Below, in pieces: positions 6,761-64,000 of a DNA stretch of 64,000 bases. The translations under genes and the position numbers were made by a program. The first letter of the stretch is position 1. Each line of letters begins with the position of its first letter. The stretch is from Bacteroidales bacterium (GTDB lineage Bacteria; Bacteroidota; Bacteroidia; Bacteroidales; UBA3663). Location of the stretch: assembly GCA_045600485.1 (NCBI GenBank), contig JAZRXX010000084.1, positions 7,449-71,448 of the forward strand, given 5' to 3'. The notes below the pieces were generated by a model. The model had not been told where the DNA came from and searched no databases. It saw only the letters and a list, made by a program, of their open reading frames with translations.

Positions 6761-8092
6761 TTACTTGATCCATCGAATAATCTCTTTGAAGGTAAATTTG
6801 CGACCATACATCAAGATTCCCGTACGATAAATACGTGCAGATATCCATAAAATACCTAAAGCTGTAGCATAAAGCAACATAAGACTACAAATCAATTCGT
6901 ACCATGGCAAATCATAAGGCAGACGAATCATCATTACTACAGGCGAAGTAAATGGAACCATCGAACACCAGAAGGCTAATGGTCCATCAGGATTCTCCAT
7001 CGAGAACATACCTGCATAAAGAGCAAATACCATAATCATCATGATTGGAGCAGTGAATTGAGAGGCATCACTTGCTTGATCTACAGCAGAACCAAAAGCG
7101 GCAAAGAGACTTGCATAGAGCAGGTAACCACCTATAAAGTAAAGTACAAAGCAGACCAGAATTTGAGTGTAGTTCACATTCAATACCATCTGAATGATAC
7201 GAGACATAGTATCATCGCCCATATTTGCCATTGCTTCAACTCCAGGACCATGAGGTTGCATACCCGCAAGTTCCGGCATAGAAGTTGCCATGGTAGAAAT
7301 CCCAAATATGGTACCGATAATGCTTAAAATAGCAGTCCAAAGGGCAATTTGAGTCAAACCAACCAATGCTACACCGATGATTTTTCCCATCATCAACTCA
7401 AATGGTTTGCAAGTAGAGATAATAACCTCGACAATACGGTTTGTTTTCTCCTCGACAACACTATTCATTATCATGGCACCATAGATGATGACAAACATAT
7501 AGGTCAGCAAAGCAAGGATGAGACCTAAAATCATGCTCAATTCGGAAGAAGAGATGCTCTCATCACCTTCTTTGCTCCATTTGATATTGGTAGTCTTGAT
7601 ACCAGGATCACAGTTATCAATAATAGCCTCCAAACTGTCTATTGCATAGGCCTTAATGCGTTCATCTCGTACCGCCTTTCTGAGCGAACGGGAGACGGCA
7701 CGTTCAAGACTGCCATTCACACTCTTTTCGCTATAAATAGAAACCTTTGTACTTTGCACCAGATCGGAGGGAATAACAACCAATGCATAAAGACTATTTT
7801 CATTCTGCTGATAAATCTGATGCATATCAACAGAAGAATCTACTGGGGCAGTAATTGATTGAAATATATAATCTTCATCATCATGAATTGAGGATGCAAA
7901 ACGAGCATTTTCGCTTTGGTCAACGACAGCAACGATTTTGCGCTCATCGCTTTTTGCTTGTGACATCAAAACAGGCAATACACCACACAAGATGATAGAA
8001 AGAATAGGAACCAGGATGGTAGTGAAGATGAAAGACTTCTTGCAAACCATCTGCACATACTCGCGTTTGATAATAATAGGAAGTCTACTCAT
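6761..8092 (-). CDS. ABC-2 type transporter permease (NatB-like)
   Basis: 443 aa. It has an N-terminal TM segment, a large extracytoplasmic loop and a C-terminal multi-TM bundle. It overlaps the upstream ATPase gene by 8 nt. Confidence 0.8.
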   Translation of the reverse strand: MSRLPIIIKREYVQMVCKKSFIFTTILVPILSIILCGVLPVLMSQAKSDERKIVAVVDQSENARFASSIHDDEDYIFQSITAPVDSSVDMHQIYQQNENSLYALVVIPSDLVQSTKVSIYSEKSVNGSLERAVSRSLRKAVRDERIKAYAIDSLEAIIDNCDPGIKTTNIKWSKEGDESISSSELSMILGLILALLTYMFVIIYGAMIMNSVVEEKTNRIVEVIISTCKPFELMMGKIIGVALVGLTQIALWTAILSIIGTIFGISTMATSMPELAGMQPHGPGVEAMANMGDDTMSRIIQMVLNVNYTQILVCFVLYFIGGYLLYASLFAAFGSAVDQASDASQFTAPIMMIMVFALYAGMFSMENPDGPLAFWCSMVPFTSPVVMMIRLPYDLPWYELICSLMLLYATALGILWISARIYRTGILMYGRKFTFKEIIRWIK

Positions 8093-8939
8093 AGTCGGTC
8101 GATTTTACAGTTTCAACAAATACTTCGTGCATGGATGGAAGAATCTCTCTGAATCCAGTTAATGCATATTCATCATTCAGACGTGCAATTGCATCATGCA
8201 TGGTTTCATTTTCCTTCAAGGTATAGTTGAAGGCTTGTCCTTCAGCAGTAGTAACTTCGAGTATGTTCTTCTTGAACTGTTGTCGGATATCACTAACCTT
8301 GCCTTGAAGCACAGCTTTCGCATGATTGATCAAGGTAATCTCTTGACAGACCTCCTCAACCGAAGACATATTATGGGTAGAAAAAAGAATTGCAGCTCCC
8401 TCATTCTTAAGGCGAAGAATTTCCTGCTTAAGCAAATCTGCATTTACAGGATCGAAGCCAGAAAAAGGTTCGTCGAAAATCATCAACGGTGGGCGGTGCA
8501 TTACCGTTGTGATAAATTGTACCTTTTGGGCCATACCCTTCGATAATTGTTCGAGTTTCTTGTCTGCCCATTCCGTCAAATTGAAACGCTGTAACCATTC
8601 GTCCATCGCAGTCCGCGCATCGTGTTTGCTCATGCCACGCAATTGGCCGAGATAAAGAATTTGATCAGAAACTTTCATTTTTTTGTACAATCCACGCTCT
8701 TCTGGCATATAACCTATATGACGAACGTCATCATCTGTCATAGGTTTGCCATGCATCAGTACTTCGCCACTATCGGCATGTGTAATTCTGTTGATGATAC
8801 GGATTAATGATGTTTTGCCTGCACCATTCGGTCCAAGCAATCCATAGATGCTGCCATCTGGAACTTCGAGCGACACATGATCGACCGCTGTATGTCCAGA
8901 ATACTGTTTGCAGACATCCTTAACTTGAATGTAAGCCAT
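8085..8939 (-). CDS. ABC transporter ATP-binding protein (NatA-like)
   Basis: It has Walker A GPNGAGKTS, signature LSKGMAQKV and Walker B MIFDEPFSGFD. Confidence 0.9.
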   Translation of the reverse strand: MAYIQVKDVCKQYSGHTAVDHVSLEVPDGSIYGLLGPNGAGKTSLIRIINRITHADSGEVLMHGKPMTDDDVRHIGYMPEERGLYKKMKVSDQILYLGQLRGMSKHDARTAMDEWLQRFNLTEWADKKLEQLSKGMAQKVQFITTVMHRPPLMIFDEPFSGFDPVNADLLKQEILRLKNEGAAILFSTHNMSSVEEVCQEITLINHAKAVLQGKVSDIRQQFKKNILEVTTAEGQAFNYTLKENETMHDAIARLNDEYALTGFREILPSMHEVFVETVKSTDYE

Positions 8940-9044
8940 TGTTGATTAAATCTGTTCCCAACCTTTCCCTTAAACAGTTCGGAACGTAATGTTTTGATAG
9001 TAAATAATACTCCCCTTCCCATAAGGGAGGGAAAGGGAGTTTGG

Positions 9045-10469
9045 TTATAGATTTTTTCTTAGCTCTTCGACTCGTTCTGCAATCCTTTGCAATTGGTCTG
9101 GAATACGGATCTTTTGTGGACAATGAGGTTGACATTTGCCACAGCCCACACAATGGTCTGCCTGACGAACAGATTCGACTGCACGATCGTAACTGATCAA
9201 ATACTCTTTGCGCAGACGGCGATAATCTGGATCCTCCTGATCTTTAGGCACTGCACCTTCGTTCACAAGTTTGTTGTAATGAACAAAAATAGATGGAATA
9301 TCGATACCATAAGGGCATGGAATACAATACTTGCAGTCATTACATGGAATTGTTGGATATTTCAGAATCATCTGAGCAGTCTCCTCGAGGAAGTCTTGTT
9401 CCTCTTTAGTCAACGTTTCCATTGGGCTATGGGTACGCACATTGTCTTGAAGATGTTCCATATAGGTCATACCACTCAAAGAACACATGACACCAGGATA
9501 TGTTCCCAAGAAGCGGAATGCCCATGAAGCAACGCTGTCCTCAGGACGGCTGGCCTTTAGGTGATTCACAACATGTGTAGGAAGTTTGACAAGACGACCA
9601 CCCAACAACGGTTCCATGATGACAGCAGGGATGCCACGTTTCTCCAATTCATAATATAAATATGAGGCATTGACATTGCGTGCATTTTGGGCTTTGGCAT
9701 TGTTCCAATCGACATAGTTCATTTGAATTTGGACAAAATCCCATTTGTAGCGACCTTCGTCATCCCATTTCAACATTTGGTCAAAGACTTCGACATCACC
9801 ATGAAAAGAGAAACCCAAATTTCGGATTACCCCCTTCTCCTTTTGTTCTACAAGCCAATCCAACAAACCATTGTTCATAAAACGCTGGTTGAAATTATCC
9901 ATGCCACCACCTCCAATGGAATGCAACAGCAAATAATCGATGTAGTCGGTCTGTAAGAATCGCAAAGAATCGCGCAACATCTTTTGCGATGCTTCAAGAG
10001 ATTGTGTCTGTGGTGCAAAATTGGAAAGCTTAGTGGCTATGAAGTAGCTGCTACGAGGATAACCAGAAGCTACCAACGCAGTACCAGTTGCCTCCTCCGA
10101 GAAGCCTTTGCAGTAAACCGGGCTTGTATCGAAATAGTTGACACCATGATCAAGGGCATATTTAACCAATTCATTAATACGTTCCTGATCCAGGTCATTG
10201 CCATCGGCACGAGCCTGCTCCTTATCGACTTGTGGTAAGCGCATCATACCATATCCAAGCAACGAAACCTTATCGTCACCTCGACGGTTCGTGCGATATG
10301 TCATCTCTCCCAGTGGCTTTTCCCCAGTTCCGACATTTCCAGTAATGGCATTAGCTACCTGCTGGCTACCAGCCCCACCGGTACAACTCTCAAGGGTTGC
10401 TACAGCACCCAATACAGCGCCGGCTGCGCCTGCACGCTTCAAAAACTCTCTTCTATCAAGATTCTTCAT
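9045..10469 (-). CDS. Tat-signal aldo/keto reductase with a C-terminal 4Fe-4S ferredoxin-like domain
   Basis: It has a twin-arginine leader (MKNLDRREFLKRAGAAGAV), an AKR core, and C-terminal Cys motifs (CNDCKYCIPCP and CVGCGKCQPHCP). Confidence 0.85.
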   Translation of the reverse strand: MKNLDRREFLKRAGAAGAVLGAVATLESCTGGAGSQQVANAITGNVGTGEKPLGEMTYRTNRRGDDKVSLLGYGMMRLPQVDKEQARADGNDLDQERINELVKYALDHGVNYFDTSPVYCKGFSEEATGTALVASGYPRSSYFIATKLSNFAPQTQSLEASQKMLRDSLRFLQTDYIDYLLLHSIGGGGMDNFNQRFMNNGLLDWLVEQKEKGVIRNLGFSFHGDVEVFDQMLKWDDEGRYKWDFVQIQMNYVDWNNAKAQNARNVNASYLYYELEKRGIPAVIMEPLLGGRLVKLPTHVVNHLKASRPEDSVASWAFRFLGTYPGVMCSLSGMTYMEHLQDNVRTHSPMETLTKEEQDFLEETAQMILKYPTIPCNDCKYCIPCPYGIDIPSIFVHYNKLVNEGAVPKDQEDPDYRRLRKEYLISYDRAVESVRQADHCVGCGKCQPHCPQKIRIPDQLQRIAERVEELRKNL

Positions 10470-15211: not shown

Positions 15212-18200
15212 ATGACCATATTCAAGAATTTATTGCATGTCGTGGCTATCACGGCAGGTATTCTTGTACTGGTTCTTTATGTTTTTTTACATTACAATCT
15301 TGCTGGACTGATTGTTGAAAATGATATCCAGCAAAAACTGACCGAAAAACTTCAGGCACGTGTAGAAATTGGAGAAATTGAGGTAACTTGGACCAACCAG
15401 ATAGCAATGAACCAGATTGTTATCTATGACCAGAAAGAGGACACTCTTCTCTACGCTCGTCGTGCTATGATAGCCCTCGAAATTGGCCCATTGCTCAACC
15501 AACAGTTAATTGTCAATACCATCCAATTGATCGATTTTGATTTGTTTGTGCGCAAAGAATCTCCCGATGCCAATACAAATTATCTATTCTTGGTCGAAGC
15601 CTTGATGCCAAAGCAGGAAGACCAACAGCGAAAGTTTCTTAACGATATCTCGATTCATGCCTTATTGTTGCGACAAGGAAAGGTTTCATACGATGTTCTT
15701 GACCAGCCATACAATACACATCCAACCATACCAGATCACAATCACATTTCATTCAGCGATTTGAGTGCCCGCCTGGAATTGGAGGTATCACACAAGACCG
15801 GATTGGAACTTAATCTAAAGCGAATGTCATGGAAGGAGAAATGTGGTATCGTTCTCCAGAATCTGAAGGGTAAGGGATATCTTGTAGCTGATAGCATTCG
15901 TCTAGAAAATATCTCTATAGAGATGACTCACGTGGTATCGGATGGCACAATATGTCAACTGGAAACTCACGGACAAGCACAAATCTTCGATGATTCGCTC
16001 TCGCTTCAAATCAACAATTTCGATCTGGAAGCAGATACTTGGGGAGAACTCCATGCCAGACTACAAATCGATACCAGATTAGATTCGATAGCCCAAAACA
16101 GTTATGAAGCAGAATTCATCAACAGCCACATTTCGAATGTAGGCTTTTCGTCAATTGCCAATGCTTTCGAATTTAAGCTTCCGAATGAAATACAAACATG
16201 GATTGGCCAAATTGAAGAACTCCATTGGCAGGGCGTCATTACTGGGAGTGATACCCAAAACTACCAGTACAAGGGTGACATCTCAACTAAGGGGGTATTC
16301 TCAAGTCGATTGACAACAAATATAAATTATCAGGCAGAGAATGTTCAGCCTTTAACCATTACTCTCAATGGTCAAATTCCGTCCATCGCCTATTTGGACC
16401 ATACCTACAGAAATCTATCTATCGAAGGTCTATACAACGGACAAGAACTGATTGCTGACTTCGATAGCCAAGACCCCATGCTTGTTGCTTTTGGCCATGC
16501 AGAAATAGCATTCAACTCAGACGAAACAAACGTACAAGGTTATGCCGACATCCAACGTGTGAATCCGTATCAAATTCATTTGTCTGAATTGTCAAATCTT
16601 GAAGGACTGAATTTTCGTGGTATCGTGCAAATGGACATCTCAATTCCTCAATCATTCAATACCGAGAATCTGTCATTCAATTTGAACAACTATCCTACTG
16701 GAACAATTCGCATTGATTCTTTACAGATATCAAATAGATCAGAAATCGTCAATTTGGGAACAACACGTATGACAATGCAACGAGAACAGGGTTCGAACGT
16801 ATTTGCCGTTGTTTCTCCTATTGCCAATATCGTTGGTACCCAGACCTCGATTATTGGATATCTACCAACCAATCCTCAATTCTCACATATTCTGAAATTT
16901 CCAGGAGAGTTGGCTCAAGACATGACTATACAGGCAGAATGGGATACTCTCAGAAATCATATCTCTATCAATGCGTCGATTCCTGAATGGAAGCAAGACG
17001 AAGCATCGTACAGTGTTCTTCTAAAAGGTGAAGGCCAAACCACAAAAGAAAGCCCGATGCCGACTTTGATGGAAGCAAATGTTCAGTTGGCCTACAAAAA
17101 TGAAACTCATGAACTTTTTTCTAGCCTGACAATGAACTATGAGCCAGATCCGATGATTATCCAACTGGCGCCATCAACACTTACGATCGACGGGAAACAG
17201 TTTAACACCACCAATGCTGTACTTCGACAGCAAGATAAAGAGTCTTACAAACTGGATAATCTGTTAGTTGAAGACCAGGACCAGAAGCTTGAAATCTCGG
17301 GCATATTTGGCTATAGTCAAGGAATGAATATGGAGGTCCGACTCGACAAATGGCAGTTGGATTTCTTTCTGGATATGCTCCAAAAAGATTATCTTGATTT
17401 CGGTGGTTACGCTTCTGGCGATATTAGGCTGTTTCGCGATTCCACATTACAGTTCAAGACCTATTCTCTCGCCATTACAGATTTTACCTACATCGGAAAA
17501 CGTCTTGGAGATGGCGACCTGACATGCTTCTGCGATCTTGACAAGGGAAAACTGAAATTTATTGCAGACATCGAAAGTTATCCAGGTCACCATACCAATG
17601 CAGAATGTGATGTTAGGTTGCACGAAGTGCACGACAGCATCGATTTGAGAGTCCAAATGGATTCGTTACCAATTGAGTTTCTCTCCTATTGGGTTGGCGG
17701 TGTCACCCAAGACCTGCATGGGCACGGTACAGGTGAAGCCCGTTTGTTCGGTGACTGCGATTCGCTTCATTTGGTCGGCAATCCATTGCTTCAGAACGTA
17801 AACTTTACCAACGATCTGCTTGGCGCACGATTCTTTATCACCGATACAATCAACTTGACCAGTAATATGGACACGGGGAAGGGATTTATCGGCTTGAACA
17901 ATGTTACTGTCCGAGACCGCAATGGGCAAAAGGCTATCCTCACGCTTGATCTTGAACACAAGTACCTCCATAACATTGAGTATGGTCTCGATCTTGATAT
18001 TCCTGAGTCCAATCAGGGATTCCTTCTCTATGATCACCCGACACAAAACAATGGAGAACTATATTGGGGACGATTATGGGCTACTGGGCGATGTCAGATG
18101 CATGGGACATATTCGCACCATCGAATCAATGTTCAGATGTCGCCATCGGGACGTTCCATTTTCAATTTGTCTCCAGGTGAAGAGAATTTTACAGACAATG

Positions 18201-54793: not shown

Positions 54794-54867
54794 GGTTCCG
54801 TAGCTTAGCTGAATAGAGCGTCAGATTCCGGTTCTGAAGGTCGTGGGTTTGAATCCCACCGGAATCA
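54794..54867 (+). tRNA. tRNA-Arg (anticodon CCG)
   Basis: I folded the cloverleaf by hand. The acceptor stem is GGTTCCG/CGGAATC, the D stem GCTT/GAGC, and the anticodon stem TCAGA/TCTGA with loop TTCCGGT (anticodon CCG). The T arm is GTGGG-TTTGAAT-CCCAC and the discriminator is A. No CCA is encoded. Confidence 0.9.
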
Positions 54868-55211: not shown

Positions 55212-56420
55212 ATGAAAAAGAATTTCGTTACCCCTGTGTTCAACCGTAGAAAGGATCTTGAGAAGAAAGGTTTTAGCAAGGTCGAGTTATTAATCTGTCT
55301 GACACGTAAAGACAAAAAGTACATCTCTATCAAAGAGTGCAATCAGAAGGAATGGGATTTATATCAGCATAGCTCAGAACTGAGAGCACAAGTAGCACTC
55401 TACAATGACATCGTCAACAAGATGTATGACCGCAATGAAGAGATGACCGTTGCCAACTTCAACGAGCGCATTGGTATCAAGGATCGGAAGTCAGAGAAGA
55501 AGGAAATGGAGAAACGCATATTCTCCCCTACCAGTTTCATCGACTTCATGCGCGAGGAACTTGCCAAAGAGAAGATTGTTGAAGGCACACGCAAGCATAC
55601 GAAAGGCGCCATCGATGCCATTGAGGAGTTTGGCAGACTGAACAGGTTTGCCGATCTCACCCCGAAGAATGTAAAGGCATTCGATGAAGCCATGAGATCA
55701 GTGGTAACTTCGAAGGGCAAGGTCAGAACTGATACCACCGTTGACAACTATCACAAGGTGCTGAAGAAGTATGCCCGACTTGCCTACGAATATGACTACA
55801 TCGAGAAGAATCCTTACGAGCATCCAATGTGTCACTTCAAGAAAGGCGAGTGCGCAGAACGTCAGCCTCTCAATGAAGCAGAACTGAAGAAACTCATCTC
55901 GATGCAGTTTATCTGCAATAAGAAGGAAACAGCCCGAGACCTCTTCATCTTCAGTGCCTACACAGGACTTGCCTACATTGATGCACAAAGCTTCGACTTC
56001 GAGAACATGACCGAGAAGATCGGAGATACATATTATATAGATGGCGCGCGCGTAAAGACAGGACAGGCATTCTTCACTCCGATATTGCCTCCTGCCATGG
56101 AGATTCTGAAGAAGTACGACTACAATCTTCCGAAGATCTCCAATCAGAAGCTTAACGATTATCTGCATCTGGTGCAGTCCGAGGCAAATATAACCAAAAA
56201 CATGACGAGCCACGTTGCGAGACATTCCTTCGCTACCCTTCTCATCTCATATGGTGTACCTATCGAGAATGTTGCGAAGATGATGGGACACGCAGAGATC
56301 AAGACCACGCAGATGTATGCCAAGGTCATGAAAGAGACCGTCGATAAGTTCACTCAGAACCTCCTTCGCGAGATGACTCCTCAGAAGAAAAAAGTAGGAA
56401 GACCCAAGAAGACTGCCTAA
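55212..56420 (+). CDS. Tyrosine-type site-specific integrase (Bacteroidetes IntDOT-like family)
   Basis: 402 aa. It has HxxR (HVARHSFATLL) and a catalytic Tyr (TTQMYAKV). Box I reads AYTGLAY, with Ala where the canonical Arg I sits and an Arg 12 residues upstream, as I recall for IntDOT. It lies 345 nt downstream of the tRNA-Arg. Confidence 0.9.
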   Translation: MKKNFVTPVFNRRKDLEKKGFSKVELLICLTRKDKKYISIKECNQKEWDLYQHSSELRAQVALYNDIVNKMYDRNEEMTVANFNERIGIKDRKSEKKEMEKRIFSPTSFIDFMREELAKEKIVEGTRKHTKGAIDAIEEFGRLNRFADLTPKNVKAFDEAMRSVVTSKGKVRTDTTVDNYHKVLKKYARLAYEYDYIEKNPYEHPMCHFKKGECAERQPLNEAELKKLISMQFICNKKETARDLFIFSAYTGLAYIDAQSFDFENMTEKIGDTYYIDGARVKTGQAFFTPILPPAMEILKKYDYNLPKISNQKLNDYLHLVQSEANITKNMTSHVARHSFATLLISYGVPIENVAKMMGHAEIKTTQMYAKVMKETVDKFTQNLLREMTPQKKKVGRPKKTA

Positions 56421-58204
56421 TCAATACGAATATCTGACATGCGATAAGCTGTCATCTTCAATAACTGCTGCATTCCAGATTCGGTGAATGTGGCGGTTAT
56501 TTTTTCTGCCAGGTACTTCTTTCCATGGATGTAGAAGATACTGTGAACGTCGGGAATAGTATCAGACAGGAAGGAGAAAGTATATTTGACAGAAGCGTCC
56601 ACCTCATGCTGCGTCTGGCGGTAATTAAAAGCCTCTTTGCTCGTCAGACGGAGATTATAAGGGTTATACTTACTGGTATTATCTGGCAGCACCTCAACAC
56701 TATCCACAAAGGGATGCGGAGCAGATGGATAGTAGTAGAAAATGTTATCTGGCCAGAATGCGACATAGAGCTTATCAAAGAACTCCTCTCGCTTAGAATC
56801 TCCATTGTTGATGATATTCACAGAAATGGTCTGGTTCTCGTCAGAATCAGCACCTGTATCGTCGCCCAGGTCGCCACAATCCACGAAAATCATATCACCC
56901 AAAGCAAGGGTTGTCTCATCAATACAAGCTGGCACAATCTTCATTTCACGCACCTCTGCATCCTTATAGTCAGGATGAATACGCGGACCGAAATTATTGA
57001 TCACCTGAAGGCGTTGCACATGGACAGTCTGCTTCTTGCTATTCTGATAGGTACGCATAGCCCGGATTACAAAGTAGGTATCATCAGGAGTGCAATAATG
57101 AATGCACTTATAGTAACTGCTATCAAAGGTACCGACTTTTTCAAGATATGGTTGGAGGGTGGTTCTCATCGTATAGAGGTTGTTCCATCTTACGATATTC
57201 ATCTTCGAGAACACCCATGGACAGGAATAGAACTTTGCCAACTGGTGACCACCGTCGGCATAGGCCAGGTTCTGCTGTTCAAAGAAAGTGTTTTGAGCCT
57301 CCTCCTTGTCCGTAATCTCCACCTTATGCGAGTCAATCACCTTGTCAATGGACACGACAGGCGAAGTAGCCAGACGCGACGCATTGAAAGAGAACTTGAT
57401 GGATCGAGCCTGGTCGTCCACCACGAACTCACCGCCGAGGAAGCACTCCACCTCGTCGAGGAACTCCGTAATAGTCCAATGAGGAAGGACGGCGTTACGG
57501 GCAGGGATATTCCAAGCGGCAGGAAGAGCGTTGCAGATGATCAAATACTTCCAATAGGAGTTTTCAATAGCCGAAATGTCATAGCGATAGTCCGTGGCAT
57601 CAAGGATACGTTTGAGTATGTCGAGGAAGAAAGGTTGACCGACGAGCGTTGACTGATATCTATCCCAGATGTAGTCTCTGCCAGGATCCATCGCATGAAG
57701 GGGGTTCTGAATGTTGCCTGACGTGTTATTCACCCAAGGAAGGCAGACAAAACCGAAGTAGTCAAAATCGCGTTTGGCACGATCCAACTGACTCTCATAG
57801 GAAGCCAGATAGTAACGCGGCTCCTCCGTCGCCTTTACCTGCACCGACGGCATAGGTATCTCATTGATGTATGTCTTATCGAGAGGCGTGGCGAAGTTGC
57901 GGACAGAACGCCCCTGCAGAAACTGCGTCTTCACCTCCAGCTCATTGATCTCGACGATATTCACTGAGCCCACAGCGTGAAAGTTGCGGTCATGAATCTC
58001 GCAATCGAGCAGCAAGGTATTGAGGTCAGCATCCTTTCGGTCAATATATCCGAAGATGTCACGGTTCTGGGGACATCCCTTCAGAGGAAAGGTGATGCTG
58101 AGCGTATAGGCATCAGCACCCGTAAAGAAAGAGTTCTCAGAGATGAAATCGAAAGAGACGCCCTTCTTCAGGGCAGCCTCCTTTCCGTTGATTAGAATGG
58201 TCAT
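56417..58204 (-). CDS. Phage-associated hypothetical protein (position suggests a distal tail/baseplate role)
   Basis: 595 aa, immediately downstream of the tape-measure gene on the same strand. It contains no motif I recognise. The 375-aa antisense ORF has an antisense-like composition. Confidence 0.6.
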   Translation of the reverse strand: MTILINGKEAALKKGVSFDFISENSFFTGADAYTLSITFPLKGCPQNRDIFGYIDRKDADLNTLLLDCEIHDRNFHAVGSVNIVEINELEVKTQFLQGRSVRNFATPLDKTYINEIPMPSVQVKATEEPRYYLASYESQLDRAKRDFDYFGFVCLPWVNNTSGNIQNPLHAMDPGRDYIWDRYQSTLVGQPFFLDILKRILDATDYRYDISAIENSYWKYLIICNALPAAWNIPARNAVLPHWTITEFLDEVECFLGGEFVVDDQARSIKFSFNASRLATSPVVSIDKVIDSHKVEITDKEEAQNTFFEQQNLAYADGGHQLAKFYSCPWVFSKMNIVRWNNLYTMRTTLQPYLEKVGTFDSSYYKCIHYCTPDDTYFVIRAMRTYQNSKKQTVHVQRLQVINNFGPRIHPDYKDAEVREMKIVPACIDETTLALGDMIFVDCGDLGDDTGADSDENQTISVNIINNGDSKREEFFDKLYVAFWPDNIFYYYPSAPHPFVDSVEVLPDNTSKYNPYNLRLTSKEAFNYRQTQHEVDASVKYTFSFLSDTIPDVHSIFYIHGKKYLAEKITATFTESGMQQLLKMTAYRMSDIRID

Positions 58205-58207
58205 GGT

Positions 58208-58242
58208 TAATTGATAATGGACAATGGATAATTGATAATTTA
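58208..58242. repeat. Heptanucleotide tandem tract (TAATKGA)n inside the phage-like element
   Basis: TAATTGA TAATGGA CAATGGA TAATTGA TAATTTA. It fills the gap between the TMP stop (58240-42) and the ATG of the 595-aa gene (58204). Confidence 0.85.
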
Positions 58243-61200
58243 CCTTCTGTACTTAGGTGTTTTGTTACGGATCAATCTGTCATACTCGTCCTGCGCCTGC
58301 TTCATACCTGTGTCGCCAGTGACAGAGTTCACTGTGATGAAAGGTTCATCAAGACGCTGCTTGAGAGAGGTCAGAACTTCAGCAAGCTCCTTGCCCGATG
58401 GAGATGCTTCGGGAACAGTGGCATTGTTTTCGATGATGACTCGCTGGGGTGCCTGAGACTGGGCAGACTGAGCGAGGACTGCAGGAGCCGTGATAGAGCG
58501 AGACACATCTTCGGAACTGATATTTCCGATGGTGTTCGTGCGTTGGGCGTAATCCAGTGCCTCAATCAATGGGCGTGTGCGAGGGTTCTTGGTAAGACTC
58601 TGAGAAGCGACCCATTCCCCGGCATGGACTACACCAGCAATCTCATCCACGGCTCCGTCCTTCGTAAAACCACCTTTCGAATAGCCCTGTGCCTCTGATG
58701 CCTGTTGCTGCTTCTTGATAGCTGCCACCTGCATCGCACCGGCTGCTATTGCCATGCCAGCTGCTATTGGTGCCAGGATATAACCGACCATAGGCACGGC
58801 AGCGGCAGAAGAATAGGCATTGATGGCGGCAGAAGCGGTCTGAGCGACGGCCTGAATCACCTGCATGGCGAACATCTTACGGTTCGACTCCTTCTTCGCC
58901 TTGGCAATCTCAGCCTCCTTCTGCTTTTCGAGACGCTTAACCTTGAAATTGTTACCCTCGGCCAGAGAGATCTCGCGGTCGTAGCGACGTTCGATATTGG
59001 AGGTCTGGATTTGTAACTCAGCCTGCAAGATGGTAGTCATCTGCTGGAAGATAGAAGCCATGCCGGACACGAGGGTATCAATGGAACCTGAAATAGCACT
59101 GCCCAGATCAGAGTCCAGGAACTCGATAACAGAATCGTTCCACTTTTCGAAGAAGTTCATATTCTCGTCGGCACCCTCGATGTTGTACTTACGCATCAGA
59201 GCCAGACGAGCCTTCTGAAAAGCCTCCTCAATGCGGAGTTTCTCCTTTGCATTGTCGCCAGCAGCTGCAAGTTCAGCATTATAGACCTCCTTCAGAAGTG
59301 CCATATCTGCGTCGAACTTAGCCTGCCGTTCCTGCGGATTATCCCCGAAATACGAGGCTTTCATCTTGGCGAGTTGATCCTGGTGCTTCTTCTCAGCCGC
59401 CTCATACTCCTTCTGATGCTTGCGCTGGTTGGCAAGCAACTTGTCCTGCAGTTGCTTCTCAGTGTTCAGCCGTTCCTTTGAGCCCTCTTCCTGTAGGTTC
59501 TTGAGGTTGTTCAGATGGGTAATATCCAGTTGCTCGATAGCCTCCTCATAGACCTCATACGTCATTTCAGAGTCGATGAACTTCTGCTTCAGTACCGCCA
59601 TCTGCTCGTTGTAGGATGCGTTCTCTTCCTCAACCGTCTGCTTGTGGGCAGCGTCGGACTGTTTCTTCAGGGCCTCGTAGTAACTTGCCTCGATAGTCAG
59701 GCGTTCCGTAGCGGTCAGATCAGTATGCTTCAGCTTCTTCTGGTTGAACTCGATTTCAATCTCATTCATCCGTTGCGTATAGGCCAGGTATGACTTCTCG
59801 CCCTTAGCGTAAGCGATTCGGTTCAGAGCATCCTCGCGCTCCTTCCATTCCTTTTCGGCAGCGAACTTATTCTTCGGATCTTCTGCGTTTGGATCAAAAT
59901 CCGGGTCAGAGTTATCTTCAACGACAGCCGCTTGTTTGATAGCAGCCTTTTGCAGGTCCTTACCATAGACCTCCATAATCTGCTTTTCAAGCGCCTCCTG
60001 TTCCCGCAGCTGCTTGTCGATGGCATCAATCTCTGCTTGCTTCTTCTCGATGGCAGCGTCCCATGAAGCATTGGCCGTATCATAGATGTAGCCCAAATCC
60101 GTGTCCACAGCAGAGCGACCATGACCTGTAGCCTGTTGCGGCTTTTTCTTATTCGCATCTATCTCCTTTGCTGCCTTTTCCTCCAGTTCAGATTTCTCCT
60201 TCTGCTTGGTGTTCATCTCCAGATTGAGGTCGGTTTTAGCCTTGCCGATAGCCTTCAGTTTGTCCTCGGCGCCCTCAATCTCATACTTTCGGACCAGTGA
60301 ATTGATGTACTCGTCCAGAGCAACCTTATTCTCCACATACTTACCCGAGGTTTCATCGAGGTAAGCATTGTAATCCGGAATGATGCCGTTGAGACGTTCG
60401 ATGGCAGCTTTCCTCTCGTCGAGAGTCAGATTCTCATTCATGGCAGCGTCGCGGAGAAGATTGAGCTGAAGACGCTCTTCCTCCATCTGCTTCGTTGCCT
60501 CTGCCTTGATGCCTTTCATCTCCTTTTCGATCTTCTGTTCCTGTGTGAGTTCCTTCTCATACTGGATCAGATAGACGATGACGGCAGCAATAGCCGCAGC
60601 GATCAAGCCCCAGAGATTCGCTTTCTGAGCAGAGTTCAGGGCGCGTTGAGCAGCAGCTGCACGTTCGAGATTGCCAGTCAGCTTATTGTAGGCGACAGAG
60701 CAATAGAGAACAGCCGTTCGATAGGTAGCCATCACGGCAGCACCCGCTTTGTGAGCAGCCTGGGTGAGCGTCACCCAAGCGTAGTGAGCCTTAAAAGCGA
60801 GGTTGCTGGCATTGATAGCCACCTTATAAGCAACGAGAGCAGCAGTACCCGAAATGATCTCCTTGTGGTACTTGATGACAAAATCAACTACCAAAGAGAG
60901 GAAACGGAGGGTCAGCGAAGTGGAAGAATAGACATGGCGCATGATTGGGAGCAGTTTTTCACCCAATTCAACAGAGAGCTCGGCAATGCGTTTCTTCGCC
61001 TTGTCGAGACCAGCCTGCACCGTATTGTTGAAAATCTCATACTCATGGGAAGCAGACGAAGCCTCCTTGAAGGCCTTGTTAGCCTCCTCCTGTTCCCACT
61101 TCACCATGTCAAGATGCTCGGCAAGCGTAGCGAGGACCTGGGACATGCGGACACCGTCCATTCCCAAGTCCTTGAACAGCGGAGCGAGGACAGCCAGACC

Positions 61201-62364
61201 GTCCTTGCTGCCGAGTTGCTGAATACGCTCCAAGAACATGATCAGACCATCATTCGTGCTGGTCTTCAGCACCTCCGTAAACTTCTCCACATCGAGGCCA
61301 ACCTGGGCGGCAACCTCACCTGGCTTCTGGAAGAGCATCATGGTCAGTTTGCCGAGGGCAGACGCGGACATCTCCGTCTTCTGGCCGTTAGCGTCGAGAG
61401 TAGCGCCGAAAGCCAGCAGCTGCGGAATCGTCAGATCGGCCTGAGCGCCTACACCAGCCATGCGTTGCGTAAACTCCACCAAGTATTGCTTGGATGCAGT
61501 ACAGTTCTGCGAGAGGACGTTGACAGCAGAACCAACGCTGAGCATGGCGTCGCGCGTACCCATATCCTTCTCCACGCCGAAGATGTTCGAGAGTTTAGCG
61601 ATGGTCTGAGTGGCACCGTTACCGAGGTCGACAAGCGCCACATTGATGATGTCAGCAGCTTCAACGTAGCCCTTGACGTCCTCAATCGTGTTCTTACCGA
61701 GACGACCTGCTTCCTGAGCAAGTTCGTTGAGTTGAGCACGGGAAGAACGGGTGCTCATGTTCTTGAAAGCAGTATTCAGTTCTTCCACTTCGTCCACCGT
61801 CAGACCTGTGTATTTGCGTGTGTTGGCCAGTTCCTCATCCATCTCAGCATAGGCATTGACGGCAGAACGACCAGCCATGACAAGACCGGTCACGGCAGCA
61901 GCAGCCCCCATGATGGTAGTCTGCCAGTCATTCATCACGCGATTGAAGCGAGTCCAGAAGGATTCAGTATCTCTCAGGTGCATATTCACCGCCTGGATCT
62001 CAGCCTTCACCATCTTGATCTTGGCACAATGGGCATCCCAGGCAGGAGTCCCACGTTCAATAAGATCGAGTTGCTTATTGAGCGTTGCGAGGGTCTTCTG
62101 CAATTCCTTAGGGGTTGCCTTATCAAGATGGCGCATCACATTCTCCACCTGTTGGGTAGCAGATTCAATTTCACGGATTTGGCGTTTCGTGTCGGTCAGT
62201 TCCCGACGGAGGCGCTTCAAATCCGTCTTATTACCAGCGGCAGCAGCCTTAGCGATGGCGCTTTCCAGGTTCAGAGCATTTGCACGAAGTTTCTGCAAAG
62301 TCTCTTCCGCTTGCTGACCGTTCACATTCAGGGTGACGGTCGCTTTAGTATTGAGTTCACTCAT
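58240..62364 (-). CDS. Phage tail tape-measure protein
   Basis: About 1,374 aa from ATG 62364 (MSELNTKATVTL). It has long coiled coils, internal TM-like hydrophobic segments and a TMP-core-like region (ELANTRKYTGLTVDEVEEL...MAGVGAQADLTIPQLLAFGATLDANGQ). A conserved C-terminal GYSKGGFTKDG...AGVVHAGEWVAS motif is also present. The track start 62469 would include the promoter box. Confidence 0.85.
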   Translation of the reverse strand: MSELNTKATVTLNVNGQQAEETLQKLRANALNLESAIAKAAAAGNKTDLKRLRRELTDTKRQIREIESATQQVENVMRHLDKATPKELQKTLATLNKQLDLIERGTPAWDAHCAKIKMVKAEIQAVNMHLRDTESFWTRFNRVMNDWQTTIMGAAAAVTGLVMAGRSAVNAYAEMDEELANTRKYTGLTVDEVEELNTAFKNMSTRSSRAQLNELAQEAGRLGKNTIEDVKGYVEAADIINVALVDLGNGATQTIAKLSNIFGVEKDMGTRDAMLSVGSAVNVLSQNCTASKQYLVEFTQRMAGVGAQADLTIPQLLAFGATLDANGQKTEMSASALGKLTMMLFQKPGEVAAQVGLDVEKFTEVLKTSTNDGLIMFLERIQQLGSKDGLAVLAPLFKDLGMDGVRMSQVLATLAEHLDMVKWEQEEANKAFKEASSASHEYEIFNNTVQAGLDKAKKRIAELSVELGEKLLPIMRHVYSSTSLTLRFLSLVVDFVIKYHKEIISGTAALVAYKVAINASNLAFKAHYAWVTLTQAAHKAGAAVMATYRTAVLYCSVAYNKLTGNLERAAAAQRALNSAQKANLWGLIAAAIAAVIVYLIQYEKELTQEQKIEKEMKGIKAEATKQMEEERLQLNLLRDAAMNENLTLDERKAAIERLNGIIPDYNAYLDETSGKYVENKVALDEYINSLVRKYEIEGAEDKLKAIGKAKTDLNLEMNTKQKEKSELEEKAAKEIDANKKKPQQATGHGRSAVDTDLGYIYDTANASWDAAIEKKQAEIDAIDKQLREQEALEKQIMEVYGKDLQKAAIKQAAVVEDNSDPDFDPNAEDPKNKFAAEKEWKEREDALNRIAYAKGEKSYLAYTQRMNEIEIEFNQKKLKHTDLTATERLTIEASYYEALKKQSDAAHKQTVEEENASYNEQMAVLKQKFIDSEMTYEVYEEAIEQLDITHLNNLKNLQEEGSKERLNTEKQLQDKLLANQRKHQKEYEAAEKKHQDQLAKMKASYFGDNPQERQAKFDADMALLKEVYNAELAAAGDNAKEKLRIEEAFQKARLALMRKYNIEGADENMNFFEKWNDSVIEFLDSDLGSAISGSIDTLVSGMASIFQQMTTILQAELQIQTSNIERRYDREISLAEGNNFKVKRLEKQKEAEIAKAKKESNRKMFAMQVIQAVAQTASAAINAYSSAAAVPMVGYILAPIAAGMAIAAGAMQVAAIKKQQQASEAQGYSKGGFTKDGAVDEIAGVVHAGEWVASQSLTKNPRTRPLIEALDYAQRTNTIGNISSEDVSRSITAPAVLAQSAQSQAPQRVIIENNATVPEASPSGKELAEVLTSLKQRLDEPFITVNSVTGDTGMKQAQDEYDRLIRNKTPKYRR

Positions 62365-62384
62365 AGACAAATCATTTTTGTGCG

Positions 62385-62392
62385 CAAAAATA
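62385..62392 (-). promoter_or_regulatory. Bacteroidetes-type -7 box TAnnTTTG directly upstream of the tape-measure gene
   Basis: The minus strand reads TATTTTTG, 20 nt upstream of ATG 62364 and downstream of the 62475-62502 terminator. Confidence 0.5.
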
Positions 62393-62474
62393 CCGCTAAA
62401 AAACAGAGTCCGAAAAGACGTGCAGACAGCACTTTCATATCGACTTTTAGAAAGATTTGAAATTTTCAAGGACT

Positions 62475-62502
62475 CAAAAAGAAAACACGCTGAATATCAG
62501 CG
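62475..62502 (-). terminator. Intrinsic terminator candidate (minus strand)
   Basis: The minus strand reads CGCTGA-TAT-TCAGCG followed by TGTTTTCTTTTTG. It is preceded by an 11-12 bp hairpin (TCGAGGGGAAAA-GTA-TTTTCCCTTCG, about 62510-62536). It lies about 85 nt upstream of the TMP promoter box. Confidence 0.55.
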
Positions 62503-62682
62503 CAAAGGGGTCGAGGGGAAAAGTATTTTCCCTTCGTTTCCGCGAGAGCAGCCCCCGACCGCCCTGCGTAATAGGCACTTTGAAAATTTGAAAATCGTTG
62601 CGGAATATGTAAGGGAGTTTCGCAAAAATCGTTGTTCTACGCGCTTGCCGCTGAAATTTTGCCGCAAAGGTCGCGCTTCGCT

Positions 62683-62878
62683 GATGATGGAGAGAGTTTC
62701 GGGATTTCGACCGATGGAGAGGGTTTCGCTTCTGCTGACGATGGGGAGAGTTTCTGCATTTTGACCGATGGCAAAGGGTTTCGCTTTTGCTGACGATGGG
62801 GAGGGTTTCGGGATTTTGACCGATGGCAAAGGGTTTCGCTTCTACTGATGATGGAGAGGGTTTCGCTTTGCGATGACC
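62683..62878. repeat. Seven tandem degenerate 27/28-bp repeats
   Basis: The GATGG unit starts at 62686, 62713, 62740, 62767, 62795, 62822 and 62850. The consensus is GATGG-RGAG-GGTTTCG-(5-6 variable)-TTGAC(C). Two subtypes alternate (..GGGATTTTGACC and ..CTTCTGCTGAC), giving a super-period of about 55 bp. Confidence 0.9.
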
Positions 62879-62914
62879 GCCAACCGCTAACGCGCGGTGG
62901 AAGGCTTGCCTACG

Positions 62915-63008
62915 AAAAAGAAAAAAGGGCGGTAAAAGCAAGTATGAAGATGTTTTGCGTGCAATACCTATGGATTTGCATCCGAAATTTCTTCATTCTT
63001 GCTCGCCC
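62915..63008 (-). terminator. Long interrupted hairpin plus T-run (minus strand)
   Basis: Three helices stack: GGGCG(62927-31)/CGCCC(63004-08), GCAAG(62938-42)/CTTGC(62998-63002) and ATGAAGA(62944-50)/TCTTCAT(62990-96). On the minus strand the hairpin is followed by TTTTTTCTTTTT (62915-62926). Confidence 0.55.
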
Positions 63009-63147
63009 TGCGGATAAAGAATACTATTCGACGGATCTGCTTGTTGTGCGGCACGAAAGGGCAAGTGACGTAGGAACCTGCTTTTCATGCCAGCACATAA
63101 AAGGAAGATACGACGATTTGTATTCTATCCTGATGCCTTGGCATTAT

Positions 63148-63205
63148 GAGGTGGAACCTTGACTGAGGATTAGTGAAACCAAGACGAAGTGAAGAGGTGG
63201 AACCT
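63148..63205. repeat. 12-bp perfect direct repeat GAGGTGGAACCT x2 (46-bp spacing)
   Basis: The copies are at 63148-63159 and 63194-63205. A third GGAACCT is at 63073-63079. Confidence 0.85.
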
Positions 63206-63688
63206 GAGTAGGCAATGCCTGACATAGCCGAAGGCTTTAGGGAGAGAAAGGAGGACAATGCAGATGCGCGGTAGAGAACGGAATGGAGAGAACAGAAGCA
63301 TAGGGAGGGCAACAGCATAAGTGGACTCGTGTGGCGGACGCCCGCCACACATAAAGGAAGCCGTAGGAATGTGGAGGACACCTATGCTATTGCCAGACCG
63401 GTGAGCCGTATGTCGGTGTGGCAGAACAGAGTGCCATGCTCTTGCGAAGGAAAAAGGCATCATCTATTCGCTGCTATAGGAACGGAATATAGAGCCTGGT
63501 GTTCAGGCGTAGATGGAAGGTACTGGAATGAATGGAGAGCCGATGCAGTGATTTGTTGATGCCCCGTAGCAACAGCATAGCACTCCTGCCACACGGACAT
63601 CGGGCAATGCGCTATTCTCATAATGGAGGGCGTAACTGTGTGCAGATGCGTGTCCTCCTTTCTGGGTGGGTGGGGCTAGCGTAAGCTT

Positions 63689-63853
63689 ATGGCGTAAGCA
63701 AAAGGGCGCTGAAGGCGCGAGTGTGCAAAGCAAATGGGCTAAGACGAAGAGCAAAAAAGAAAGAGAGGATCCTGTCAAGGGTCCTCTCTGGAGTGATGAT
63801 TATGGCGAAGCGATAAGGCGCAGAAGGCGCGAATGGTGCGAAGCAGATGGACT
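63689..63853. repeat. Direct repeat pair of about 52 nt flanking the 63753-63789 hairpin
   Basis: The copies are ATGGCGTAAGCAAAAGGGCGCTGAAGGCGCGAGTGTGCAAAGCAAATGGGCT (63689-63740) and ATGGCGAAGCGATAAGGCGCAGAAGGCGCGAATGGTGCGAAGCAGATGGACT (63802-63853). Confidence 0.8.
63753..63789 (-). terminator. Intrinsic terminator candidate (minus strand)
   Basis: The minus strand reads AGAGAGGACCC-TTGACA-GGATCCTCTCT (8 bp, one mismatch, then 2 bp) followed by TTCTTTTTTGC. Confidence 0.6.
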
Positions 63854-64000
63854 TTAGTGATGTGCGAATGCAGAAAAGAGCGAATGCTGAAGGGTGCCGC
63901 TGCCGGCACTTGACAATGGCAATGGCTGCTATGTTTTTCGTAGAAATCATAGTAGCGATTGCTGAAAAGAGATAGGCAGAAAGATTACTTCCTACTATGT

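Follow-up and report, generated by a model that had tools for sequence, protein, structure and literature searches.

The question raised by this locus is what a strongly folded, gene-free segment does ahead of the tape-measure protein (TMP) gene of a Bacteroidales prophage. The segment, termed Domain I, spans 419 nucleotides (nt; positions 63245-63663) of a 64,000-nt stretch of contig JAZRXX010000084.1 (assembly GCA_045600485.1), and this whole stretch is referred to as the window. The fold is that of a single strand and is specific to one of the two strands, and it has counterparts in a conserved family, in which the pairing and two short tags at the ends are maintained while the core sequence drifts. 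The overall best reading, for which we see about an even chance, is that the segment is a minus-strand structured RNA module of a TMP-linked prophage family. We attach the same evenly balanced weight to the view that the 419-nt stretch represents one copy of an undescribed family of strongly folded noncoding prophage modules.

A preliminary description of the window, made from its letters alone, had proposed that nested complementary segments define a foldable domain at this position. All six pairings that it listed were recovered exactly by direct inspection of the sequence, and a repeat search gave the same arms:

63245-63257 with 63651-63663: P1, the closing helix, 13/13 complementary
63416-63424 with 63586-63594: helix 2, 9/9 complementary
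63430-63440 with 63574-63584: helix 3, 10/11 complementary, the lone mismatch being C-A on the plus strand and G.U on the minus strand
63456-63462 with 63557-63563: helix 4, 7/7 complementary
63329-63350: local hairpin, 9/9 complementary
63373-63381 with 63650-63658: alternative pair formed by the second GGAGGACAC copy, 9/9 complementary

On either strand, pair probabilities of 0.999-1.0 were obtained for the local hairpin and for each of the four nested helices. The alternative pairing of GGAGGACAC is fully complementary, but its pair probability in the predicted ensemble is 0, and it is thus unsupported. Helices 2 and 3 had been described as split by an internal loop of 5x1 nt; on the minus strand, however, helix 3 comprises 12 base pairs (bp; 63429-63440 with 63574-63585), and the two helices are therefore parted by a 4-nt bulge. 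Two helices that had been overlooked, one of 16 bp (63308-63323 with 63379-63394) and one of 8 bp (63288-63295 with 63612-63619), are part of the fold.

The significance of the fold was expressed as a z-score against dinucleotide shuffles, none of which reached the real value in any run:

63200-63700, plus strand, RNA parameters: -200.4 kcal/mol, z -5.5, 0/100 shuffles as good
63200-63700, minus strand, RNA parameters: -181.3 kcal/mol, z -8.0, 0/100 shuffles as good
63220-63680, minus strand, RNA parameters: -172.0 kcal/mol, z -9.7
63220-63680, minus strand, DNA parameters: -80.6 kcal/mol, z -7.9

The energies of both strands lie far below those of the shuffles, and the possibility that they are no different, which the preliminary description had proposed to check, is rejected. 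The shuffled controls are beaten by 5-10 standard deviations, in agreement with the claim of a properly nested, non-chance domain of ~420 nt.

On the minus strand, Domain I is a helix-closed fold with z of -8 to -9.7 and pair probabilities of about 1. From its base upward it consists of P1, short stacked pairs, an internal loop of 15x15 nt, the 8-bp helix, a 4-bp helix (63298-63301 with 63607-63610, minus strand), and two arms. The 8-bp helix forms on the minus strand only, with a pair probability of 0.999 versus 0.098 on the plus strand. The arms are as follows:

63303-63399, minus strand: arm A, a 97-nt hairpin formed by the 16-bp helix, which contains two G.U pairs on this strand, and capped by the perfect 9-bp hairpin 63329-63350
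63405-63605, minus strand: arm B, a 201-nt interrupted hairpin that contains helices 2-4

The helices of arm B extend from 63405-63407 paired with 63603-63605 inward to 63471-63474 paired with 63545-63548, and an apical hairpin is positioned at 63494-63508. A U5 bulge (63451-63455) is located within GAUGCCUUUUUCC. The apical loops of the minus-strand fold are GCGU and AACAC. A targeting of other window sequences by the arms was rejected, as a comparison returned only chance matches of 11-12 nt. The arms of P1 read AGAAAGGAGG and CCUCCUUUCU (63245-63257 and 63651-63663), which we take to be an extended Shine-Dalgarno sequence and a copy of the 3' tail of Bacteroides 16S rRNA, the window having no 16S gene for comparison. 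On the plus strand, an ATG at 63259, just past the P1 arm, opens an open reading frame (ORF) of 20 codons.

Domain I is bracketed by two short tags:

63664-63675, minus strand: leader CCCCACCCACCC, C-rich, directly 5' of P1, unpaired in the minimum-free-energy fold and thus predicted to be single-stranded
63226-63238, minus strand: trailer AAAGCCTTCGGCT / AAAGCCUUCGGCU, a mini-hairpin AAAGCC-UUC-GGCU, 7 nt after P1

The leader CCCCACCCACCC is the sole match to the pattern CCC[AG]CCC-N0-6-CCC on both strands of the whole 64-kb window, and the trailer, 437 nt away, is the sole minus-strand match to AAGCC-N3-4-GGCT. The window holds exactly one leader-trailer pair, which brackets Domain I, and 300 block shuffles contained 0 such pairs. 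The tags bear on the idea that Domain I is a miniature inverted-repeat transposable element, which the perfect 13-bp terminal inverted repeats around a compact and highly foldable 419 nt would suit. The ends of the segment, however, fall exactly between the leader and the trailer of the family, the flanks (TAGGGAG and GGGTGGG) differ and give no target-site duplication, and no second copy was found in the window, 98 related loci, IMG/VR, or INPHARED. We therefore regard a transposable element as extremely unlikely.

The same anatomy recurs in prophages with related TMP genes. Homologues of the TMP at 46-74% identity were found in IMG/VR, in GTDB genomes that were assembled from gut samples of goats, sheep, buffalo, yak, and further ruminants, and in Prevotellaceae bacterium HUN156, the one record not labelled as metagenome-assembled, which has a family member at 8770-9135 of locus L026. 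The spacer between the lysis genes (an endolysin at 7811-8248 in L026) and the TMP gene is 1-2.5 kb long in these relatives, poor in ORFs, and C-rich, and contains stretches with z of -7 to -13. One to three tandem modules were found in these spacers. In the window, the gene-free spacer upstream of the TMP gene measures at least 1.5 kb, from 62470 to the window end (64000), and has no credible ORF. Its plus strand is purine-rich, and the TMP-sense strand is therefore C-rich.

When read on the TMP-sense strand, each family module begins with a leader CCCRCCC-N0-6-CCC(C) that abuts the closing helix. The leader occupies the same place on the same strand, and never the other strand in loci that carry it. 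It is directly followed by a rod-like or branched fold of 170-430 nt and, in several families, by a trailer AAGCC-N3-4-GGCU located a few nt (within about 12) past the closing helix. In all ten metagenome contigs that extend far enough (10/10), the module is followed on its own strand by a TMP homologue at a distance of 1.1-2.4 kb, and the GTDB and IMG/VR loci have this layout as well. Where a genome has more than one module, the copies are paralogous: the first and second modules of loci L043, L018, and L011 are 94%, 86%, and 76% identical, respectively. The paralogues of these three loci differ at all four bases and not specifically at adenines, and a diversity-generating retroelement was rejected.

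The window has the spacer position and strand, the leader, the trailer, and a stable fold within the 170-430-nt range of the family. The resemblance of its core to subfamily B (L018 and L046) is limited to two features: a GCCUUUUUC bulge 3' of the apical helix, and the AGAAAG.../...CUUUCU base of its closing helix, right after CCCACCCACCC, which is like that of L018. The family membership of the window module rests on position, strand, leader, trailer, and architecture.

The maintenance of pairing was measured in the relatives as the number of pairs changed on both sides while still paired, in comparison with shuffled alignments and with slid controls:

A2, six modules of 68-76% identity: 35/94 pairs; shuffles 15.4 ± 2.7, 0/500 reach the real value; slid 2-8
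A3, 26 distinct modules: 32/67 pairs; shuffles 18.0 ± 2.1, 0/500 reach the real value; slid 2-9
A1, second family: 8/57 pairs, counted without shuffled or slid controls
A4, third family: 15/45 pairs, counted without shuffled or slid controls

For the A3 set, metagenomes were scanned with a 22-mer that is conserved at the apex, and 28 contigs were gained in this way. In this set, 95.9% of the cells are paired, and G.U pairs are fixed at high frequency, for example in 25/26 and 18/26 sequences. The comparisons indicate that the family relatives are under selection for structure, the pairing being kept by compensatory changes.

Template switching can yield changes that look compensatory. It is conceivable that the spacer is a dumping ground in which template switching makes and maintains inverted repeats, so that the fold is functionless and the paired changes are by-products. 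The perfect 13-, 16-, and 9-bp helices and the fast turnover of sequence between relatives would fit such an origin, as would the motifs GTGTGGCRG and GCAACAGCATA, each of which is found in direct and inverted form, arranged as X Y Y' X' Y X' ... X Y'. However, families without any other sequence in common retain the leader and trailer tags, the position and strand of the module do not vary among the relatives checked, and the wobble pairs are biased to one strand. The sequences of bulges and internal loops, such as the U5 bulge and an apical 25-mer, are conserved as well. A functionless fold is thus rather improbable.

Inverted repeats alone do not give the transcribed strand, as the preliminary description had noted, and its argument that flanking terminators point to the minus strand is borne out: the hairpin-plus-U-run sites are found on the minus strand only (63789-63762, 63008-62927, and 62504-62486). 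A count of G.U pairs in a sense-strand prediction is circular, and an antisense prediction collects as many. Strand-neutral tests were therefore used. One of them considered pairs whose neighbours on both sides are predicted for the sense and the antisense strand alike. Of the pairs so defined, 13 exist on the sense strand only and three on the antisense strand only, and the cells comprised 84 G.U versus 24 A.C. Isolated mismatches inside purely Watson-Crick stems of 19 modules were G.U on the TMP-sense strand in 54 cases and A.C in 16, and those within stems of the window were G.U on the minus strand in four cases versus 0. The consensus fold energies of the sense and antisense strands are -80.8 and -63.8 in A1 and -48.4 and -31.3 in A4, and are about equal in A2 and A3. 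The strand-neutral wobble tests favour the TMP-sense strand, which is the minus strand of the window.

The folded strand does not appear to encode a protein. A coding function, including one with stop-codon recoding, was rejected: there is no open frame, and the stops are of all three kinds, so that no single type explains the interruption. A six-frame translation of 63150-63780 had no match among 5.8 billion called proteins. A retron msr-msd was also rejected; a closing inverted repeat is present, but there is no reverse transcriptase gene in the 54.9-64 kb region or in the spacers of the relatives.

The module is followed on the minus strand by a series of noncoding features that separate it from the TMP gene, and is preceded by a terminator-like site:

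63753-63789, minus strand: terminator-like hairpin upstream of the module, arms 63762-63773 / 63778-63789, with a UUUCUUUUUU run
62902-63220, minus strand: Domain II, a second helix-closed fold, z -9.7, without a leader motif
62666-62884, no strand assigned: tandem repeats, 4 x 55 nt (8 x about 27 nt)
62445-62610, minus strand: conserved element upstream of the TMP promoter, with the terminator 62486-62504 and a U run at its end
62385-62419, minus strand: TMP promoter, composed of GTCTTTTC (62412-62419), N19, and the -7 box TATTTTTG (62385-62392)
58240-62364, minus strand: TMP gene, 1374 amino acids (aa), PF10145

The TMP promoter (GTCTTTTC-N19-TAnnTTTG) is conserved in 14 loci, in which GTCTTTT and TTTG are invariant. 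Its -7 box is the only TAnnTTTG within 62300-64000; the whole window, a chromosome of Bacteroidales type, contains 63 copies of this Bacteroidetes -7 box versus 39 expected. Since a terminator and then a conserved promoter of its own precede the TMP gene, the module is not a TMP leader.

This arrangement bears on whether the module could act in cis on the TMP gene as a 5' untranslated region, an attenuator, an antiterminator, or a single-stranded DNA promoter of the Frpo type. Frpo elements are single-stranded DNA promoters of conjugative leading regions that form hairpins of up to about 350 nt and are located near ssb, umuDC, and toxin-antitoxin genes (PMC11541004). The module is likewise a noncoding hairpin with a length in the hundreds of nt, it precedes the TMP gene on a common strand in all loci, and genes of the ssb, umuDC-like, and toxin-antitoxin types border the spacer in some relatives. 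In contrast to Frpo, whose fold is needed on the template strand of the gene that it drives, the wobble bias favours a fold on the coding strand here, and the downstream gene has its own double-stranded promoter. The stems contain no -33/-7 or -35/-10 boxes, and no sigma-70-like site was found in the domain. Moreover, the module and the TMP gene are separated by about 850 nt that include Domain II, the tandem repeats, the conserved element, and an intrinsic terminator, and the gene is served by the conserved -33/-7 promoter. A cis-acting TMP leader is therefore very unlikely.

The structured RNA module may instead be a unit of its own. The 419 nt would be the folded core of a noncoding module positioned between the lysis genes and the separately promoted TMP gene, with the order leader (63675-63664), helix-closed fold (63663-63245), and trailer (63238-63226) on the minus strand. 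An untranslated transcript of about 0.75 kb running in the TMP direction would extend from the leader through Domain I and the trailer into Domain II, and would stop at U6CU5 (62926-62915). The fold shape and the two tags are kept while the other sequence drifts, which argues for a stable RNA recognised by its shape rather than for a cis-regulator of the TMP gene. Such an RNA could be bound, via its shape and tagged ends, by a phage or host protein. The transcript ends and the function of the module proposed here are inferred, as is the RNA nature of the folded strand, for which we see a slightly better than even chance.

The alternative for the folded strand is a single-stranded DNA site for initiation or assembly, similar to sso, primosome, or primase sites. 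It would come into use once phage replication displaces the TMP-sense strand, and the adjacent tandem repeats would serve as iterons. The ssoA and ssoU origins of rolling-circle plasmids and the ssi/primosome sites are orientation-specific long imperfect hairpins, in which the structure and a short basal motif are conserved and which sometimes occur more than once per replicon. The module resembles them as a strand-specific imperfect palindrome with a short conserved basal motif, divergent sequence, conserved pairing, and one to three copies per genome. Its fold with DNA parameters has a z of -7.9, the 8 x 27-nt direct repeats adjoin it, and the spacer of some relatives is bordered by genes of DNA metabolism (SSB, UmuD/UmuC-like). 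No promoter of the module was seen, and the terminators located upstream would keep it from being transcribed. An ssoA-type origin, however, has the loop motif CS-6 (TAGCGT) and shares its replicon with a Rep gene and a double-strand origin. A TAGCGT-type motif is absent from the apical loops of the module (GCGU and AACAC), and neither a rolling-circle Rep nor a double-strand origin was seen in the examined parts of the element, which cover the window to 64000 and the flanks of the relatives. The module belongs to a tailed prophage that has a tape-measure gene, it is larger than such origins (up to 430 nt), and the many sense-oriented hairpin-plus-U sites around it are features of transcripts. 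The G.U pairs fixed at high frequency also fit RNA somewhat better. A single-stranded DNA site is an unlikely explanation, although it is the main rival of the RNA reading and a better one than the functionless fold.

Several observations weigh against the structured RNA module. No canonical Bacteroidetes -7 box is present in 62470-64000 on either strand. The strong minus-strand terminator 63789-63762 lies about 90 nt upstream of the leader, and the route by which the module would be transcribed is therefore unclear. G.T wobbles are tolerated in single-stranded DNA too, and the fold with DNA parameters is equally exceptional. The perfect 13- and 16-bp helices and the two motifs present in both orientations resemble young inverted duplications. 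A covariance model of the apical region of the closest subfamily (R1, subfamily B) reaches only E of about 0.2 at 63432-63582 on the minus strand, which is not significant, and 0.21 at 63034-63110; homology of the core to the L018/L046 subfamily is therefore unproven. Finally, no alignable homologue of the exact sequence of the domain was found, and the covariation was seen in the relatives only.

The search for such a homologue covered several collections. No homologue of the domain was found in INPHARED with blastn, and the exact hairpin pattern had no match in IMG/VR, where a pattern of the leader plus GAAAG gave 21 chance matches in high-GC phages without a downstream fold. In 98 related loci searched with blastn and nhmmer, the TMP-proximal element alone matched, and not the domain. 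The contig of the one close relative (L016, from SRR21150833), with a TMP that is 94% identical, ends in the tandem repeat. The only match in the window to Rfam 15 at the gathering score is a tRNA, and a search of 62300-64000 at E <= 10 returned noise only, with no GOLLD, ROOL, 6S, 6S-Flavo, or Bacteroidales-1. In the relatives, the Rfam matches are tRNAs and FopS, which lie outside the modules. Literature searches found no description of leader-fold-trailer elements. The family is thus absent from Rfam 15 and, in the literature searched, undescribed, both in its leader-fold-trailer design and in its tandem paralogues and constant location ahead of the TMP promoter.

A large structured noncoding prophage element is, as a kind, already known from GOLLD and ROOL. 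These are large, ornate prophage RNAs of several hundred nt that are strongly structured and noncoding and have no known function, and ROOL was first seen in rumen data (PMC12286853, PMC5737381). The module is likewise large, strongly structured, noncoding, and prophage-borne. It differs from them in being rod- or Y-shaped, with very low sequence conservation and two short end tags, whereas GOLLD and ROOL are ornate, with many conserved nucleotides and pseudoknots. In addition, the module is tied to one phage lineage and one position. 6S RNA is rod-like, with a large internal loop and conservation of secondary structure rather than sequence. The large internal loop of the module, which measures 15x15 nt in the window and about 11x10 and about 20x20 nt in relatives, is similar, but the module is two to three times longer, branched in the window, and phage-borne, and has leader and trailer tags.

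The remaining parts of the spacer have features of their own. Domain II contains a long hairpin (62927-63008) followed by U6CU5 (62915-62926) in a terminator-like arrangement, as well as two direct copies of GGTTCCACCTC. It also contains CACTTGCC, which in the A3 family is conserved as a motif on the 3' side of the fold. The unit of the tandem repeats contains on the minus strand GAAACCCTCYCCATCG, which resembles the leader of the module. Relatives have arrays of repeats of about 100 nt in the same place, and assemblies often break there. The idea that contig ends are phage genome termini was rejected, the ends being within tandem repeats or the conserved element and thus assembly breaks. Upstream of the module, 63696-63723 and 63808-63835 are two copies, 82% identical, of a 28-nt unit that forms on the minus strand a small GCGCC-loop-GCGC hairpin followed by a short U run. 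Together with 63789-63762, these units make three terminator-like sites within 300 nt. In L011, at least eight small hairpins of the form ATGCCC-loop-GGGCAT followed by CTTTT are located between two modules (7700-8400), all on the TMP-sense strand; the terminator-like sites of this locus number ten on the sense strand and 0 on the other, versus 3.4 expected.

The conserved element that precedes the TMP promoter is about 120-165 nt long and has 74-84% DNA identity in more than 20 relatives, which makes it better conserved than the TMP protein. It begins with ACATATTCCGC, and for its segment CCCUCGACC (62517-62509) pairing with GGUCGGGGG (62560-62552) and pairing with the GAGGGGAAAA/UUUUCCCCUC hairpin exclude each other. 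The element (62445-62610) has no Rfam match and looks like an attenuator or a small RNA.

The prophage is integrated beside a tRNA gene, and the genes between this site and the TMP gene are as follows:

54794-54867, plus strand: tRNA, Rfam match
55212-56420, plus strand: tyrosine integrase
56417-58204, minus strand: ORF of 595 aa

The genes near the spacer in some relatives (3866-5644 of L026, 7018-8146 of L017, and 20139-20729 of L018) encode UmuD-like and UmuC-like (Y-family polymerase) proteins, SSB, and a Gp49/helix-turn-helix toxin-antitoxin pair, and L018 has an ArdA gene beyond the integrase. This gene set is reminiscent of conjugative leading regions. L017 contains at 17761-17832 a FopS-family Bacteroidetes small RNA (73.7 bits versus a gathering score of 56) among tRNA genes beside the prophage integration site.

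The preliminary finding of a foldable domain was correct as far as it went, and its value is that it led to the family. More speculatively, the modules may be genes for a new class of phage RNA: unit-length rods or Ys of 0.2-0.45 kb that carry a conserved C-rich tag at the 5' end and a mini-hairpin at the 3' end. They would be made in one to three tandem copies late in infection and would act by a duplex-like shape on a protein target. We consider this proposal improbable as it stands. If it were true, the RNA could be a 6S-like decoy of RNA polymerase, a decoy for host defence that senses nucleic acids, or a structural or packaging RNA like the pRNA of phi29, and the fast-evolving core would track the protein target. 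Large structured phage RNAs are few, and most of them, such as GOLLD and ROOL, have no assigned function. The family described here is tractable: its covariation is strong, its genomic location is constant, two short conserved tags enclose a core that evolves fast, single genomes contain tandem paralogues, and HUN156 has a member. Both the binding partner and the choice between RNA and single-stranded DNA are open to direct experiment. For the annotation of rumen and gut Bacteroidales prophages, the lesson is that the 1-2.5-kb gap before the TMP gene is neither a mis-assembly nor a recoded gene; it is an organised noncoding unit composed of modules, repeats, a conserved element, a terminator, and a promoter.

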